This document shows, piece after piece, positions 37,982-45,307 of a DNA stretch of 64,000 nt. The notes beneath the pieces were generated by a model, which ran no database searches, had not been told where the DNA came from, and saw only the letters and a program-made list of their open reading frames with translations. Every line of letters begins with the position of its first letter. The first letter of the stretch is position 1. Origin of the DNA: Candidatus Poribacteria bacterium. Lineage in GTDB: Bacteria > Poribacteria > WGA-4E > WGA-3G. The translations under genes and the position numbers were made by a program. The DNA lies in NCBI GenBank assembly GCA_965205015.1, contig OZ242029.1, forward strand, positions 672,001-736,000, read 5' to 3'.

Positions 37982-38229
37982 AATATAACGAAGTTGCTAC
38001 TTACAAGATTGTAGGCACGCAGATACTGTGATTGAAATTGGTTCATTATCCGTAGAGGTTTGTAACGCAAATTGAATGAGGTTTCAATAAATATTTCGGT
38101 AATTCTATATTTCCCCCAGGCCCGGTAGGTGCGGTTTCAAACCGAATCGGACATCGTTGGGAAATTACCAAATTAAATTCTGAATCTTCATAAAGATTGT
38201 GCTACAAAGGCAGCACCTTAAGTTAACGT

Positions 38230-39570
38230 ATGAAAAACGTGATAAGGTTCTCAGTTTTAATAGGGATTCTCGCCAACGTGATCCTTGGCTGTGATATGGA
38301 TAGCGAGGAAGAAGTCAGAGACCTGGATCCAGTCCAGTTCGTTTCAGCGGACCCACCCAGTGGCAGTACACTCCTATCAAACGCACCTATCACAGTTTCG
38401 TTCGACGGCATCCCAGAGGACCTGATCGTGCCGCAAGGCGTAGTTTCTCGATCTGCCCGGACCCGCAAGACTGTCATCATATCGGGACCCTTTACTGTCG
38501 GTGAACTCACACTTACAATGAAATGGAAAGACGGCGCACACACGCTCGTCTATACAGTTGAGCCTGTCCCTGTCAAGTTTGTTTCTGTGAATCCCCCGGA
38601 CGGGAGCCTGTTATTGCCAGATGCACTCATTACCGTTTCATTTGATGGAGAGCCGAAGAATTTGAGCGTGACACCCGGAAAAGTCAGTGTCTCTGGCAGG
38701 ATAGCCACTATACCGGGTCCTTTCCCACGAGGAGAACTCACCCTTGAAATGAAATGGGACAGTGGGACACACACGCTCGCTTATACAGTCGAATTCGCCG
38801 TGCCAGAAGGAATGTCCCTGATTCCCGAAGGTGAGTTTGAGATGGGTAGCGATACAGCTGAGGCGAACGACGATGAACGTCCTGTCCACACCGTTTATGT
38901 AGATGCGTTTTACATGGACAAACATGAAGTGACAGTTGGCGAATATCGGGAGTTTGTTCAAAAAACGGGACATCGCGCCCCGGACTGGGACAAGGTTTCT
39001 CGCTATTCGCCGACCGATCAGTCTCCGATCGTTTTTGTGAGTTGGCACGATGCGATGGCGTATGCGAAGTGGAAAGGTAAACGGCTCCCGACGGAAGCAG
39101 AATGGGAGAAAGCGACACGCGGGGGTGTCTCCGGGCGGTCATATCCGTGGGGCAACGCTGCACCGGACGGAACGCAGTGCAACTTCGCCGATAAGAATAT
39201 TGCCCACTTCTGGTGGGCAGATGAAGAGACAGACGATGGTTACGCACACACTGCCCCAGTCGGGAGTTATCCTGACAATGCATACGGTTTACACGATATG
39301 GCTGGAAATGTGTGGGAGTGGTGTCTCGATGAATACGACCCCGGTTTCTATGCGATTTCGCCGGACACAAATCCCTTTTCAGAGGTAGACACTATAGAAG
39401 CGATAATTGATACCTTTTCGAGTGTTCAGACCCCACGCGTGTTGCGCGGCGGTTCCTGGCTCGTGACGGTGCTCGGTGTGCGGAGTGCCGTTCGCTTCAG
39501 GCTCGATCCGTCCAGCACGAACAACAGTGTTGGTTTCCGGTGTGCGAAGGATCTGGAGGCTTTACAATAA
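38230..39570 (+). CDS. Lipoprotein with two Ig-like repeats and FGE-sulfatase (SUMF1) domain
   Basis: Lipobox ILGC; duplicated PV.FVS..PP.GS.LL; F.MGS, RLPTEAEWE, DMAGNVWEW, RGGSW, GFRC. Confidence 0.9.
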   Translation: MKNVIRFSVLIGILANVILGCDMDSEEEVRDLDPVQFVSADPPSGSTLLSNAPITVSFDGIPEDLIVPQGVVSRSARTRKTVIISGPFTVGELTLTMKWKDGAHTLVYTVEPVPVKFVSVNPPDGSLLLPDALITVSFDGEPKNLSVTPGKVSVSGRIATIPGPFPRGELTLEMKWDSGTHTLAYTVEFAVPEGMSLIPEGEFEMGSDTAEANDDERPVHTVYVDAFYMDKHEVTVGEYREFVQKTGHRAPDWDKVSRYSPTDQSPIVFVSWHDAMAYAKWKGKRLPTEAEWEKATRGGVSGRSYPWGNAAPDGTQCNFADKNIAHFWWADEETDDGYAHTAPVGSYPDNAYGLHDMAGNVWEWCLDEYDPGFYAISPDTNPFSEVDTIEAIIDTFSSVQTPRVLRGGSWLVTVLGVRSAVRFRLDPSSTNNSVGFRCAKDLEALQ

Positions 39571-39696
39571 TGTGAGTTCGACTTAAGGATTTCAAGGAAT
39601 TCACCACGATATACCATGTTTCTCAAGGACTTGGAACAGACATATTTAATTGGTGCTTTCCAAACACATCCCGTTGAAGGAGATTTTGCCGTGAAC

Positions 39697-42600
39697 ATGC
39701 GAGTCAAACGTTTCTTTTTCATACTCACCCTCTTATTGAGTTTTTTGCCGCTGGGTTTTGCCCAAGATCTACTACCGAGGCCGATAGTACGGATCATCTA
39801 CTTTTCTCCAAATGACCGCGCTCCGCAGCCAGACATAGATGAAAAGATAGATAGGTTAATAAAGGATGTGCAGGCATTTTACGCACAACACATGGAAAAC
39901 CACGGGTTTGACAGAAAAACTTTTCTGCTTGAAACCGACGCACAGGGAAAAGCTATCGTCCATCACGTGAAGGGCCGGTTCAACCACACATATTATCAGA
40001 ATAACTGGAGGAAAGCTGAGAGAGAATCTCTTGAACAGTCTGACAGACGAAACGCCTCTATCAATTTTATTGTGTTAGATGTAAACCTCGAAGGAATAAC
40101 GCCATGCGGTGGGGGCAGTGGAAATGGGCATGTTGGAAGAGCATTTGTTACCACCCAACCAGATTGTTTTAACGTTCCAATTATTGCGCATGAACTCGGG
40201 CACGCCTTTGGACTCTGGCACGATTACCGCCCCGTTGGCGGCAACTGGAAACGTGCCTTAGGTATCAGGGACCCTATGATAACATCTTTGTGCGCTGCGG
40301 AGTGGTTGGATGTGATTTCCGCCTTTAATGCCCCCCAAACCCCGTTCAATCAGAGAACAACAATTGAGATGCTTGGGCCGCCAACCCTCGTGGCAGCCCC
40401 GAACACCTTCCGTTTCCGCTTTAAAGTGCAAGATTCGGATGGCCTCCATCAGGTGCAACTGCACATGCGGGATCCCTTGATTGGACACGCTGGTGACTCT
40501 TTGTTGGATTATAAGGGATTAAAAGGAGTCCGCAGCAGTACCCTTGAATTTGTTAGCAGTATCCTACTGGGGCCGACGACGCATGGTGTAGTGATTGAAA
40601 GCATTGATGTGCATGGATACACACAATCCCAGAATTATCCAGTTGACCTGACTCCGCTATTTCCTCCGCCTGAAGTTGTGTCTATACCAGATGCGAATTT
40701 GGCATCGGCAATCCGGCGAGAGATTGGCAGTTCAATCACGACGCGCACGCTGCTGAATTTAACCTCTCTTGCTCTCCCTACTCGCAGAATAACAGATCTT
40801 ACCGGTCTTGAACATGCACACAATCTACTCAGCTTAAATCTTAGGCGTCAGCACATTGGTGGAGAGGGGTTTTCGGTATTAGATTTGTCACCGATTGGAA
40901 ATTTACCCCGACTGTCACGGCTGGACCTTTCTCACAATTCCCTCACGGATGTCGCACCCCTCTCGGGATTAACATCACTGAGAGAACTGTGGCTTTCTGA
41001 CAACAATATCACGGATGTCGCACCCCTCTCCGAATTAACATACCTGACACGACTGTGGCTTTCTGACAACAATATCACGGATGTCGCACCCCTCTCCGAA
41101 TTAATACAACTGAGAGAACTGTGGCTTGATGGCAACAATATCGCTGATGTCGCACCCCTCTCGGGATTGACACAACTCACAGAACTGCGGCTTTCTGGCA
41201 GAAATATCACGGATGTCGCACCCCTCTCAGGATTAACACAACTCACAGAGCTGGAGCTTCCTTACAGCAATATCACGGATGTCGCACCCCTCTCAGGATT
41301 AACACAACTGAAATACCTAAGGCTTTCTTACAGCAATATCACGGATGTCGCACCCCTCTCAGGATTAACACAACTGAAATACCTGGGGCTTCATCGCAAC
41401 AATATCACGGATGTCGCACCCCTCTCCGAATTAACACAACTGAAATACCTAAAGCTTTCTGACAACAATATCACGGATGTCGCACCCCTCTCCGAATTAA
41501 CACAACTCACAGAACTGCGGCTTTTTGGCAACAATATCGCTGATGTCGCACCCCTCTCCGAATTAACACAACTGACAAGGCTGTACCTTGATGGCAACAA
41601 TATCGCTGATGTGACACCCCTCTCCGAATTAACACAACTGAAATACCTATGGCTTCATCGCAACAAAATCACGGATGTGACACCTCTCTCGGGATTGACA
41701 CAACTCACAGAACTGTACCTTGCTGACAACAATATTACTGATGTGGCACCCCTCTTGGGATTAACACAACTGATAGAACTGAGGCTTCAGACTAACCCAC
41801 TGGGCTATGCCTCTATCCACACACACATTCCTGCCATGCAGGCAAAAGGGATCCCAATCCGTTTTCACAATGTTGTGCATCCCGCACTCCTGAAGGTCTC
41901 AGGCGATGCACAGACAGGATCGGTGGGGAATCCTCTGGCAGCTTTTATTGTCGAAGCACAGGATGAACGCGGCCAGCCAATGCCTGACGTACGCGTCAAG
42001 TTTGCAGTTGAGGCAGGTGGAGGCACGCTCAACCCAACAATCACTGCGACCGATGCCGATGGCAAGGCACAAACAATCTTGACACCCGGATGGACTCCTG
42101 ACACGACTACTATTCGCGCAACTGCCACAGGTATTACAGCATACGTCCGTTTTACAGCGACCGCCACCGTGCTGACAGATCGCCGTGCTGAAGATGTCAA
42201 TGCGGACGGTGTTGTTGATGTGGAGGACCTCGTCCTTGTGGCATCCAGTTTCGGGGCGGTGCCGACTCCCAGCACGCTTCCCGATACGGACATCAACGAT
42301 GACGGCGACATCAATCAAGAAGATGTCGAATTGGTTTTAGCGGCACTTGAGGCAGCACCCGCTGCGCCTTCCCTGGATACGCAGTGGACTGTATCAAGCC
42401 TTCAGCGGTGGATCGCAGAAGCGAAGCAACGGAATATAGGTGATGCTACTTTTCAGCGAGGCATAAAAATACTTGAGAAACTGCTCGCAGATTTGCTCCC
42501 GAAACAGACACTACTTCTCGCCAACTATCCGAACCCGTTCAACCCGGAGACGTGGATACCCTATCAACTGTCAGAACCAGGAGATGTGATAGTGCATATC

Positions 42601-42795
42601 TATGGGGTGAACGGCGTATTAGTGAGGACGTTGGGATTGGGGCATCAACTTGCGGGAACGTATCAAAGCCGGACGCGCGCGGCGTATTGGGACGGACACA
42701 ATCAACTGGGGGAACCTGTGGCAAGTGGTGTCTATTTCTATACATTGTCTGCCGGCGATTTCACGGCGACGCGGAAGATGTTGATACGGAAGTAG
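39697..42795 (+). CDS. Secreted metzincin-motif + internalin-like LRR + Ig + dockerin-like + FlgD-Ig protein
   Basis: HELGHAFGLWH; IPDANL cap; 22-aa LRRs; DVNADGVVDVEDL; NYPNPFNPETWIPYQL C-terminal domain; start placed at MRVKRFF. Confidence 0.88.
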   Translation: MRVKRFFFILTLLLSFLPLGFAQDLLPRPIVRIIYFSPNDRAPQPDIDEKIDRLIKDVQAFYAQHMENHGFDRKTFLLETDAQGKAIVHHVKGRFNHTYYQNNWRKAERESLEQSDRRNASINFIVLDVNLEGITPCGGGSGNGHVGRAFVTTQPDCFNVPIIAHELGHAFGLWHDYRPVGGNWKRALGIRDPMITSLCAAEWLDVISAFNAPQTPFNQRTTIEMLGPPTLVAAPNTFRFRFKVQDSDGLHQVQLHMRDPLIGHAGDSLLDYKGLKGVRSSTLEFVSSILLGPTTHGVVIESIDVHGYTQSQNYPVDLTPLFPPPEVVSIPDANLASAIRREIGSSITTRTLLNLTSLALPTRRITDLTGLEHAHNLLSLNLRRQHIGGEGFSVLDLSPIGNLPRLSRLDLSHNSLTDVAPLSGLTSLRELWLSDNNITDVAPLSELTYLTRLWLSDNNITDVAPLSELIQLRELWLDGNNIADVAPLSGLTQLTELRLSGRNITDVAPLSGLTQLTELELPYSNITDVAPLSGLTQLKYLRLSYSNITDVAPLSGLTQLKYLGLHRNNITDVAPLSELTQLKYLKLSDNNITDVAPLSELTQLTELRLFGNNIADVAPLSELTQLTRLYLDGNNIADVTPLSELTQLKYLWLHRNKITDVTPLSGLTQLTELYLADNNITDVAPLLGLTQLIELRLQTNPLGYASIHTHIPAMQAKGIPIRFHNVVHPALLKVSGDAQTGSVGNPLAAFIVEAQDERGQPMPDVRVKFAVEAGGGTLNPTITATDADGKAQTILTPGWTPDTTTIRATATGITAYVRFTATATVLTDRRAEDVNADGVVDVEDLVLVASSFGAVPTPSTLPDTDINDDGDINQEDVELVLAALEAAPAAPSLDTQWTVSSLQRWIAEAKQRNIGDATFQRGIKILEKLLADLLPKQTLLLANYPNPFNPETWIPYQLSEPGDVIVHIYGVNGVLVRTLGLGHQLAGTYQSRTRAAYWDGHNQLGEPVASGVYFYTLSAGDFTATRKMLIRK
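40942..41799 (+). repeat. 13 x 66-bp coding tandem repeat (LRR)
   Basis: ATCACGGATGTCGCACCCCTCTC-like core recurs every 66 bp. Confidence 0.93.
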
Positions 42796-42827
42796 GATGC
42801 AGCAGCGTTTCATTGATGTATCCGAGT

Positions 42828-42856
42828 TTGACAAATATAACGCGACGGTGTACAAT
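42828..42856 (+). promoter_or_regulatory. sigma70-type promoter with extended -10
   Basis: TTGACA-17 nt-(TG)TACAAT upstream of interrupted gene at 42970. Confidence 0.7.
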
Positions 42857-42997
42857 TTAACAAAGCCATTTGGAGGAATCTCCTGCTCAATATTAACCTC
42901 AGCTAACGTTTCGGTTCTAAACTGAGCTCATATTAATCACGCGCAGTATTTAGGAAGAAGGGGATAAAAATGAATGCAACTATTGAATCAACGATAG

Positions 42998-43276
42998 GTC
43001 AGTGACCCAAACCTAAAGGATTGGGACCTGTCCACTACGCCAACCAAGGCTATAGGGTGGACGAGGGCAACTCATTGACTACCGTAAAATATCGCAGATA
43101 CAGGAGTTGTGGTAGACTCCAACTATGTCAAGAAAACGCTATACCGAACTGGTAGTAGGTATAGTTAAGGATACTCCCCTCGTCTTTGTCCACTTGGTAT
43201 CTGTGATCGGGAAGGGGCAACATATACCCGCTATTAGCGGAGGGTCTCCGAAAGGTCATTACCTGTTTTCTTGACA
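42998..43276 (+). ncRNA. omegaRNA / HEARO-like structured RNA scaffold
   Basis: GTCAGTGA pairs with TCATTGAC (43072-79); ATCGCAGATAC/GTATCTGTGAT; GGATACTCCCCTCGTC loop complementary to downstream AGGGG; layout recalls HEARO/omegaRNA. Confidence 0.65.
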
Positions 43277-43484
43277 GCACCGGGTCAGGTCAAAGTAAGT
43301 TCTGGTGACAGCAGAAACGAAACGAAGCAGCCTACTGGGAAGAATCGCCAAAGCAGCACCGTGGCGAAAAAACGGACTGCACTTTTCTAGAAGTTTCTTT
43401 TTTTAACCTGGACCTTTGGTCCTTTCCAAGAGGGCGGATTTTCCTCCCAAACTTAAAAGTTTGGGTTTCCAATCCGTAAATCTG
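42998..43484 (+). mobile_element. Non-autonomous IS200/IS605-type (IscB/OMEGA-like) element without ORF
   Basis: Subterminal hairpins CCCAAACCTAAAGGATTGGG (43006-25) and CCCAAACTTAAAAGTTTGGG (43446-65); starts GTCA, followed by ATGA; no target duplication; boundary ambiguous by one G. Confidence 0.8.
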
Positions 43485-43712
43485 ATGAATTAACAACCGA
43501 TCCGAAAACACCCTCGGAAGGGAAGCAGATGATCCCTCATATCGCAACAGAACAAGCAGATTCAAAACAAATAGCACTTATGGACTATGCCGAGGAACAA
43601 CTTCGGAAATTAGCAACTTCTCGCGGATTAGATTGGGAGGCTATGACCGATGAGGACCGCATAGATTTTGTTGATAACCTCGTCCACGAGGACCGTAAAT
43701 AAGGAGTTAATA

Positions 43713-44741
43713 ATGAAAGAAGTCAAGGTAGGTATTGTTGGGTGTGGTGGTATTGCCGGAGGTAAACACCTTCCGGGTCATAAAGGCGTCAAAGGCGTTT
43801 CGATTATCGCCGCGTGTGACATCGACGCAGCCCGTGCGAAAGCGTTCGCCAAAAAGCACGACATCCCACACGTTTTCAGCGATTACGAGGAATTAGCGGC
43901 AATGGATGAGTTGGATGCGGTGAGCGTTTGTACACCGAACAACTTCCACGCCGGTCCAACGATCGCGGCGTTGAAGGCGGGAAAACACGTTATCTGTGAA
44001 AAGCCGATCGCTGCTAATGCGGTTGATGGACAAGCGATGGTGGATGCGCAGAAAGCGAGTGGTAAAGTTCTACAGATCGGGTTACAATCTCGATTCCGTG
44101 CTGAGGCGCGCACCCTCCGCAAACTCTACGATGAAGGCTTTTTCGGAGACATCTATTATGCCCGTGCCATGTCAATGCGGCGGCGTGGGGTGCCTGCTTC
44201 ACCCTCTTTTCTGAGTAAAGCCATCGCAGGCGGCGGACCGTTGATTGACATCGGTGTGCATATCCTTGATGTGTTGCTCTGGATGATCGGTTGCCCGAAA
44301 CCGATTGAGGCGTTCGGGATGACAGCAACGAAGTTTGGACATAAAGAGAATGTCATCAACCCGTGGGGCAAATGGGATCCTGAAGATTTTGAAGTAGAAG
44401 ATTTCGCGATGGGCACTGTCCGCTTTGAGGGGGACCTGACGGTGACCTTGGAGACGGCATGGGCATCGCATATTGAGAACATCGGTGGGACGTTCTTTAT
44501 GGGGGATTTAGCCGGTGCGACCTATGAACCGCTTCAGATTTATCTTGATAAGAAAGATGAGATGGTGAATTATACACCGAAACTTCTTACCGGATTACCG
44601 AGTGAATTTGAATCGTTCCACACGGCTATTCGAGAAGGGTTGCCGTCTCCTGTTCCTGCTGAAGAGGTATTGAACGTCGCGAAAATCTTCGATGCGCTCT
44701 ACGAATCGGCGCGGATCGGTCGTTCCGTCCCGATTTTTTAA
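43713..44741 (+). CDS. Gfo/Idh/MocA family oxidoreductase
   Basis: VGIVGCGGIA, HVICEKP, GGGPLIDIGVH; SD AAGGAG before ATG 43713. Confidence 0.93.
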   Translation: MKEVKVGIVGCGGIAGGKHLPGHKGVKGVSIIAACDIDAARAKAFAKKHDIPHVFSDYEELAAMDELDAVSVCTPNNFHAGPTIAALKAGKHVICEKPIAANAVDGQAMVDAQKASGKVLQIGLQSRFRAEARTLRKLYDEGFFGDIYYARAMSMRRRGVPASPSFLSKAIAGGGPLIDIGVHILDVLLWMIGCPKPIEAFGMTATKFGHKENVINPWGKWDPEDFEVEDFAMGTVRFEGDLTVTLETAWASHIENIGGTFFMGDLAGATYEPLQIYLDKKDEMVNYTPKLLTGLPSEFESFHTAIREGLPSPVPAEEVLNVAKIFDALYESARIGRSVPIF

Positions 44742-44750
44742 TTTACCCTG

Positions 44751-44901
44751 CGGGCAGGCACAAGACCTGAGGATACGGGTAGGCACAAGACCTGAGGATA
44801 CGGGTAGGCATAAGACCTGAGGATACGGGTAGGCACAAGACCTAAGGATACGGGTAGGCACAAGACCTGAGGATACGGGCAGGCACAAGACCTGCCCCTA
44901 C
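44751..44901. repeat. 25-bp tandem array (5 units plus a complete REP-like palindrome)
   Basis: CGGGYAGGCACAAGACCTGAGGATA x5 then CGGGCAGGCACAAGACCTGCCCCTAC. Confidence 0.92.
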
Positions 44902-44902
44902 T

Positions 44903-45307
44903 TTATGGGTGTGAAGGCTTCTGGTAACTTGCACGTACAACGGTTTTGATGCCGCCACGGATATTAAAATCACCGATAACTTCCGCCTTCTGCGGTTGGC
45001 ACGCTTCAACAAAGTCCTCCAACACCTTATTCACGACGTGTTCATGAAAGATACCAATATCTCGATAAAAAAGGAAGTATTCCTTCAACGACTTCAGTTC
45101 GACACAATGCTGGTCTGGCACGTAGGTAATACAGAGGGTTGCGAAATCCGGGAGTCCCGTTTTAGGACATACCGCAGTGAATTCTAAGTTGGTAATCTCG
45201 ATCGTGTAATCCCGGTGGCTATACTGATTTTCCCATGTCTCGATTGGAGGTGTTTCCAGTTGACGGATATGGGTTTGTAGATCGTCATAGCCGGTACTTT
45301 GGTTCAT
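44903..45307 (-). CDS. queF: NADPH-dependent preQ0 reductase
   Basis: EFTAVCPKTGLPDFA, VELKSLKEY, FHE, RGGI. Confidence 0.96.
   Translation of the reverse strand: MNQSTGYDDLQTHIRQLETPPIETWENQYSHRDYTIEITNLEFTAVCPKTGLPDFATLCITYVPDQHCVELKSLKEYFLFYRDIGIFHEHVVNKVLEDFVEACQPQKAEVIGDFNIRGGIKTVVRASYQKPSHP

Follow-up and report, generated by a model that had tools for sequence, protein, structure and literature searches.

What is the 487-base element that interrupts a small gene in these sponge-symbiont Poribacteria, and how might it move and act there? The window, that is, the whole stretch of DNA analyzed here, comprises 64,000 nt (contig OZ242029.1, positions 672,001 to 736,000, forward strand; assembly GCA_965205015.1, Candidatus Poribacteria bacterium), and all positions are counted from its first base. 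As seen in Table 1, the small gene is broken at 42998 and picks up again at 43485. When the element is removed, the reading frame that starts with the ATG at 42970 continues into the ORF that ends at 43702. Since the insertion lies inside codons 10 to 11, the small gene is cut. IsrB, the protein that matters most in what follows, is a nickase that lacks the HNH domain and is a relative of Cas9. An earlier note, made from the sequence of the window, had proposed a non-autonomous OMEGA-like element whose loss restores the gene and, at the same time, recreates a guide match beside a target-adjacent motif (TAM). Our analysis leads to a similar reading, to which we give a probability of about 80%, namely, that 42998-43484 is a non-autonomous IS200/IS605-type (OMEGA) transposon belonging to a Poribacteria-wide family and composed of an IsrB-type scaffold, a 3' RNA domain, and a TAM-side end.

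Table 1. Positions of the element, its parts, and the neighboring host features in the window
Feature	Position	Strand	Basis or remark
Promoter-like TTGACA-17-TACAAT, host operon	42828..42856	+	11/12 positions match; putative function
Small host gene, 5' piece (ATG, 9 codons, base 1 of codon 10)	42970..42997	+	Sequence, orthologues, empty-site contigs
Presumed 20-nt guide, flank directly 5' of scaffold	42978..42997	+	By analogy with DtIsrB; flank varies among 21 copies
Whole mobile element, 487 bp	42998..43484	+	X4 and X5 contigs skip exactly these 487 bases; family ends
IsrB-type omega-RNA scaffold, 246 nt	42998..43243	+	Model R1 over all 211 positions: 114.8 bits, E 2.3e-26
Subterminal hairpin, scaffold-side end	43006..43025	+	Palindromic; compensatory changes among copies
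Scaffold-hairpin expansion, gene-less lineage only	43098..43168	+	56 nt vs 16 in model R1
Conserved structured RNA domain on the 3' side, at the position of isrB	43253..43366	+	Covariation statistics on gene-less copies
TAM-side end module	43414..43484	+	SD-like AGAGGG, outer stem, inner hairpin, 8-nt spacer
SD-like AGAGGG	43429-43434	+	Part of TAM-side module
Outer stem	43435-43440 with 43471-43476	+	Part of TAM-side module
Inner hairpin, TAM-side end	43446-43465	+	Palindromic; kept among copies
ATGA flank, target-adjacent motif	43485..43488	+	Reverse complement including next base = TTCAT
Small host gene, 3' piece	43485..43702	+	In-frame ATG at 43529 gives a remnant ORF of 57 codons
Gfo/Idh/MocA oxidoreductase gene, downstream context	43713..44741	+	Pfam PF01408, E 1.7e-30

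The boundaries of the element and its natural empty site were established directly, by comparing the contigs of public sequencing runs with window positions 42700-43800. In runs X4 and X5, which come from other organisms and different studies, a single contig per run joins 42996 to 43484 with one ambiguous base. With that one ambiguous base, the 487-base skip equals the loss of 42998-43484 without a target duplication, as the earlier note had read the junctions, and the flanks of other family copies carry no duplication either. The X4 contig (1122 nt) differs from the window at 19/281 and 8/217 flanking positions, and the X5 contig (487 nt) differs at 12/204 and 13/256; thus, the flanks are approximately 94 to 95% identical to the window, and the small gene is intact there. 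The sequence of this natural empty site is that of the excision product predicted earlier, including the in-frame joint that leaves an uninterrupted small gene. It reads the guide match and then ATGA, and flank plus ATGA correspond, as anticipated, to a target with a TAM of the published kind. The insertion site is, therefore, polymorphic between lineages only about 5% apart. Contigs of the source sample (X1) show the filled form only; rare variants are dropped by contigs. No RNA run was among the 23 runs listed. The empty allele belongs to a lineage diverged by about 5% and may be ancestral, or never hit, rather than excised.

The same comparison yielded some observations of a different kind. 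A stretch of 106 bases (43292-43397) is missing from contigs of X1 and X3, and one of 71 bases (43095-43165) from a contig of X5; such contigs represent further family members, each without one module. Upstream of the small gene, the last 100 bases of an LRR protein gene (39616-42795), at window positions 42700-42800, were covered by very many contigs in all four runs, and the contigs piled on this C-terminal region diverge directly past its stop. Evidently, the C-terminal end of the LRR gene is common to many genes.

A search of a protein collection with the downstream part of the small protein gave 30 relatives of 50 to 108 residues, and among these 30 no Pfam family scored above the cut-off. 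As a single query, the small protein found no close relatives in the genome contigs and metagenome contigs; an alignment query led to 80 loci. Orthologues of the small gene were present in ten Poribacteria genomes, with 59 to 70% identity and the N-terminus MN.TTELTTDQ. These orthologues lack five of the restored codons: their DNA is uninterrupted, has no counterpart of 42989-42997, and reads, at the junction, ACTGAAT followed directly by TAACAACC. Because the empty-site contigs contain the five additional codons, these belong to the host lineage and are a property of the window's lineage, not a part of the element. We also observed that the five additional N-terminal codons (window 42982-43499) resemble the next five, with 11/15 bases identical. 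From this resemblance, they look like an old, diverged tandem duplication, which would be the source of the internal ATGA targeted by the element. Farther downstream, between the oxidoreductase and queF genes, minus-strand ORFs at 44595-45012 encode the same peptide several times, suggesting that this intergenic stretch may be a tandem DNA repeat.

As described above, the element ends exactly where the empty site requires, and its anatomy is that of the IS200/IS605 type. The first bases, at 42998, are GTCAGTGACC. The two near-identical subterminal hairpins reported in the earlier note proved to be 20-nt palindromes (43006-43025 and 43446-43465) with a mutual identity of 85%; the left one lies 8 nt inside the left boundary, the right one lies 19 nt inside the right boundary, and both are kept across the family copies with compensatory changes in their stems. 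Terminal inverted repeats of the cut-and-paste type are absent, and subterminal imperfect hairpins are found at both ends instead. The element carries no transposase or nuclease ORF, as had been stated: ORFs contained entirely within it do not exceed 50 codons, and tblastn with 12 IsrB proteins detected no IsrB coding sequence in the 64-kb window at E <= 0.01. An antisense ORF of 81 codons (43332-43577) spans the right boundary. No second copy of the element was found within the window.

Membership in a family was established directly as well. The query was the 502-base stretch 42989-43490, that is, the element and a few flanking bases, and it matched 3/5 and then 77/175 Poribacteria genomes; hence, other copies with the same ends exist, as predicted. 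The matches are modular, with a core from 42998 to approximately 43385 and a right-end module at 43414-43490. This right-end module is also found alone or behind unrelated cargo in many genomes, and by its sequence the right end seems common to several cargo types. At two loci (L124 and L125), the module is preceded, over approximately 260 nt, by an unrelated structured sequence that is not the IsrB scaffold. Sixteen complete gene-less copies, the window copy included, were aligned; they measure 419 to 487 nt, and compensatory changes were observed at 47 of the 95 consensus pairs of this gene-less lineage. All left ends examined (21/21) start with GTCA in the same register, in agreement with the GTCA start noted earlier, and the similarity begins at the equivalent of 42998. 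In contrast to this fixed start, the 20 nt on its 5' side are variable, and no position reaches consensus among the 21 flanks. A Shine-Dalgarno-like motif occurs within those 20 nt in 9/21 copies, as it should if copies usually land between the ribosome-binding site (RBS) of a gene and its start codon.

Next, we consider what the element carries at its left end. Since the Rfam HEARO model (RF02033) gives no match to the window copy at E <= 10, the link to IsrB rests on R1, a covariance model built from 12 isrB-linked upstream RNA regions with the window left out (45 pairs, of which 16 show compensatory changes). The R1 match at 42998-43243 is the only one in the 64 kb with an E value below 0.8; a second match, at 38152-38274 (E 0.83), was taken as noise. 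The search with R1 gave one match in each of the 40 sources. In the 28 non-training sources, which are the 27 loci collected with the element query plus the window, the scores range from 84 to 171 bits; the higher scores of the 12 training sequences follow from the way the model was built. In the reverse test, a profile of the gene-less copies matched 12/12 and a further 30/30 isrB loci directly upstream of the gene. Moreover, in the isrB loci, the 205 to 224 nt from the left end up to the start codon of isrB align with window 42998 to approximately 43250. The homology of the scaffold to isrB-linked RNAs is, in this way, a direct finding.

The identity of the nuclease was read from the genes next to these RNAs. 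ORFs with PF14239 (RRXRR domain), of approximately 340 to 345 residues, were found in 5/5 genomes searched; one of them matched the IsrB of PDB 8DMB with an E value of 2.7e-34, and IscB chains with only 1e-6 to 6e-9. IsrB relatives are present in 80/175 Poribacteria genomes. Judged by homology, the 5' cargo of the element is an IsrB-type omega-RNA scaffold, not an IscB-type one. The earlier proposal of an OMEGA partner thus stands insofar as the scaffold is homologous to RNA upstream of nuclease genes; the family named there, IscB, has to be replaced by the HNH-less IsrB. The proposed check with the Rfam HEARO model failed for the window copy; in relatives the model gave 25 to 36 bits, below the gathering score of 83, in 1/4 isrB and 4/6 gene-less loci, and each of these subthreshold, full-length matches begins at the left end of the family. 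The HEARO model is insensitive for these scaffolds.

The scaffold of the gene-less lineage has one feature of its own. The expansion of a scaffold hairpin (approximately 50 to 70 nt) is missing from the 12 aligned isrB-linked regions and from 30 more, and the scaffold spans 185 to 205 nt in 30/30 isrB loci versus 246 nt in the window. This expansion could impair the binding of IsrB, which counts against the reading that we prefer.

Downstream of the scaffold, in the place that isrB occupies in its own loci, the gene-less copies carry a conserved 3' domain with 25 pairs, in which 95% of the cells are paired and 11 pairs carry substitutions in both partners. For covariation it scores 0.378, compared with 0.181 in shuffles (0/500 reach the observed value) and at most 0.139 when the partners were slid. 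These statistics are supportive, not proof, because the copies share ancestry and the fold was predicted from the very alignment on which it was scored. Several of its pairs are G-U on the plus strand and would not pair on the other strand. No Rfam match for the domain was found in the window copy or in its relatives, and nhmmer did not detect it in isrB loci, with 0/12 at E < 1 (best 1.2) and 0/30 at E <= 1e-3. An origin as a remnant of the 5' coding part of isrB was considered and rejected, given that the 42 isrB loci have no nhmmer match and that the covariation is of the RNA type. A recurrent 17-residue tblastn match to IsrB residues 26-42 (E 0.008 to 0.12, in a database of only 271 bases) was treated as chance, and a very old isrB origin of the domain is possible. 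From these comparisons, the gene-less lineage does not appear to be a plain deletion derivative.

The right end of the element is tied to a short motif in the host DNA. We considered the 26 right-end modules with the usual spacer of 7 to 10 nt; two further rows, whose spacers differ and which lack ATGA, came from a looser pattern and were set aside. All 26 right ends adjoin ATGA (18 ATGAA, 5 ATGAT, and 3 ATGAG), and the expectation of ATGA on the 3' side of each copy is thereby directly established as a rule. In 19/26 copies, an ORF of 60 or more codons begins with this ATG, which is, therefore, a host start codon. The window copy is an exception, and its ATG reads M-N-stop, out of frame within the host gene. 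A GGAG/GAGG-type motif stands directly 5' of the outer stem in 24/26 copies (window 43429-43487 and the L083-L130 right ends), and the distance from the 3' side of the outer stem to the host ATG is 8 to 10 nt. Folding of the hairpin at the RNA level would bring the motif to a normal RBS distance from the host start codon, and the motif may then serve as a hairpin-bridged ribosome-binding site. Among the papers listed in a literature search, there was no description of start-codon targeting by omega RNA or PATE elements, and such a description may be in print.

To place these features in a mechanism, we turned to published systems. In the available sections of Hirano et al. (2022; PMC9581776), the DtIsrB complex has a 20-nt guide directly 5' of a scaffold that starts with GUCAAC, followed by a hairpin. 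The same sections give the DtIsrB TAM, 3' of the target, as NTGA (TTGA at 60°C) with ATGA active, and that of other IsrBs as NTG. For IscB, the sections available of Meers et al. (bioRxiv 10.1101/2023.03.14.532601) describe a scaffold derived from the RE of the transposon and a guide outside the boundary, so that the RNA requires read-in transcription from outside. According to the same source, TnpA and the nuclease recognize one motif, which is TTCAT in Geobacillus (ISGst). In the window, the scaffold start given by the model coincides with the transposon boundary set by the empty site; therefore, the guide would come from the 5' flank, presuming that the flank is transcribed. The presumed origin of such read-in transcription for guide and scaffold is the promoter-like site at 42828-42856; the consensus promoter of the earlier note was found there at 11/12 positions, and a scan at its threshold observed 2 sites versus 1.7 expected.

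On this basis, we propose that the element inserted directly 5' of ATGA without duplication. A Y1 TnpA from elsewhere would act on the minus strand and would recognize the two hairpins and the TTCAT flank, the ATGA-side module being the presumed TnpA left end, with cleavage 19 nt from its hairpin, and the scaffold side being the presumed TnpA right end (minus strand), lying 8 nt from its hairpin and overlapping the scaffold. TnpA would then excise the element scarlessly. Read-in transcription from the host promoter would give an RNA in which the 20-nt flank, as the guide, precedes the scaffold. If IsrB were provided in trans, such a transcript could bind the nickase, pair with the emptied site beside ATGA, and direct a nick there, and the nick would favor re-copying of the element. 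The insertion might in this case behave as a switch, that is, as a reversible knock-out of the small gene. A demonstration of nick-driven homing was not found in the parts of the literature on IsrB/IscB elements that were available, which counts against the proposal.

Candidate partners for such a mechanism are encoded in related genomes. Genes for Y1 TnpA (PF01797) are present in 5/5 of them, and one of the six tnpA loci fetched is a tnpA-tnpB element with an end similar to that of the family (E 2.9e-9). This IS605-type element, in genome G004 (L141:1290-2200), has a left end like the TAM-side end but lies beside TTAT. From this likeness, its TnpA would be a candidate for mobilization in trans. 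Among the papers listed for Poribacteria together with IscB, IsrB, TnpB, or IS200, there was no mention of Poribacteria.

A bolder reading concerns the gene-less lineage as a whole, and we offer it tentatively, at odds well below even. This lineage may represent a mobile element in its own right, RNA-only, in which the nuclease gene has been replaced by a conserved structured RNA domain of its own, and which lands between the RBS and the ATGA start of host genes and brings a substitute RBS through its end hairpin. It would thus be a mobile 5' leader that keeps the host genes expressed while making guides for IsrB elsewhere. On this view, the window copy would be a rare case of landing within a gene by mistake, and scarless excision might remove it.

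Among the explanations that compete with a mobile, RNA-producing element, the one that survives best gives it the same origin and a different present. The copy could be a dead relic, no longer mobilized, its RNA not made or not used, and its insertion neutral or mildly harmful in a dispensable gene. The window copy does cut its host gene, unlike the 19/26 copies that directly adjoin the start codon of an ORF of 60 or more codons, its scaffold has the expansion unseen in isrB-linked RNAs, and the source sample contigs do not contain the empty joint. However, the copy retains its two ends, its two hairpins, and its full-length scaffold in intact form, with a score (114.8 bits) inside the family range of 84 to 171, the gene-less lineage retains its structure by compensatory changes, and the site is polymorphic between lineages about 5% apart. 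We regard the relic as unlikely. Far less credible is a self-splicing intron, or an IStron-like element, which would restore the small gene at the RNA level: Rfam models of group I and group II introns had no match at E <= 10 on either strand of 42700-43800, most family copies precede start codons rather than interrupt genes, an omega-RNA scaffold makes up the 5' 246 nt, and the empty form exists as DNA, although removal of the element restores the frame exactly and its folding beats that of shuffled controls on both strands (z -3.44 and -3.11). Finally, a cut-and-paste MITE of 502 bp with a 5-bp TGAAT target duplication (42984-42988 and 43486-43490), which would fit the lack of a counterpart of 42989-42997 in the distant orthologues (59 to 70% identity), is refuted by the empty-site contigs, which skip 487 and not 502 bases and retain 42989-42996, and is contradicted by the start of family similarity at 42998 in 21/21 copies and by the flanks of other copies without duplication. 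Overall, the hairpins, the absence of a duplication, the one-sided motif, the lack of a gene, and the scaffold homology support the non-autonomous IS200/IS605-type OMEGA element first proposed.

The element is a clean natural example of RNA-only OMEGA, with both the filled and the empty alleles in public data; as a result, its boundary, guide, and TAM are fixed to the base without an experiment. Since the family is abundant in Poribacteria (the element in 77/175 genomes and IsrB in 80/175), it could be used to investigate the persistence of guide RNAs that have no nuclease gene. In addition, the 3' RNA domain and the arrangement of SD-like motif, hairpin, and spacer at start codons are leads on how such elements avoid harm to the host.

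The basic class of this element is already described in the parts of the literature available here, and the finding, therefore, confirms more than it discovers. Less ordinary are the 3' RNA domain in the place of isrB and the start-codon architecture of the right end. Standalone omega RNAs are known and are thought to act in trans with IscB encoded elsewhere (Altae-Tran et al., 2021, as cited in the available sections of PMC9581776). As far as those sections describe them, they are, like the window element, scaffolds without an adjacent nuclease gene; the window element differs in being of the IsrB type, in having both transposon ends, and in its additional conserved 3' RNA domain. Gene-less, PATE-like relatives of ISGst1 and ISGst5 are described in the accessible text of Meers et al. 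(10.1101/2023.03.14.532601). These share with the window element IS200/IS605 ends without protein genes and, presumably, the use of TnpA in trans, and the ISGst TAM, TTCAT, is the reverse complement of the ATGAA flank in the window. They belong to a different phylum, and the window element contains a full omega-RNA scaffold, a comparison that describes the content of the window element and not that of the ISGst elements. The HEARO RNA (RF02033) has the same position and role, upstream of IscB/IsrB genes, and relatives of the window element score below its gathering threshold. The closest parallel in detail is DtIsrB (PDB 8DMB), which, as given in the available sections of its description, has the same order of a 5' guide, a scaffold starting with GUCA, a first hairpin, and a 3' TAM of the NTGA type; its scaffold is 262 nt long and lies beside its gene, whereas that of the window is 246 nt long, carries a lineage-specific expansion, and belongs to a gene-less element.
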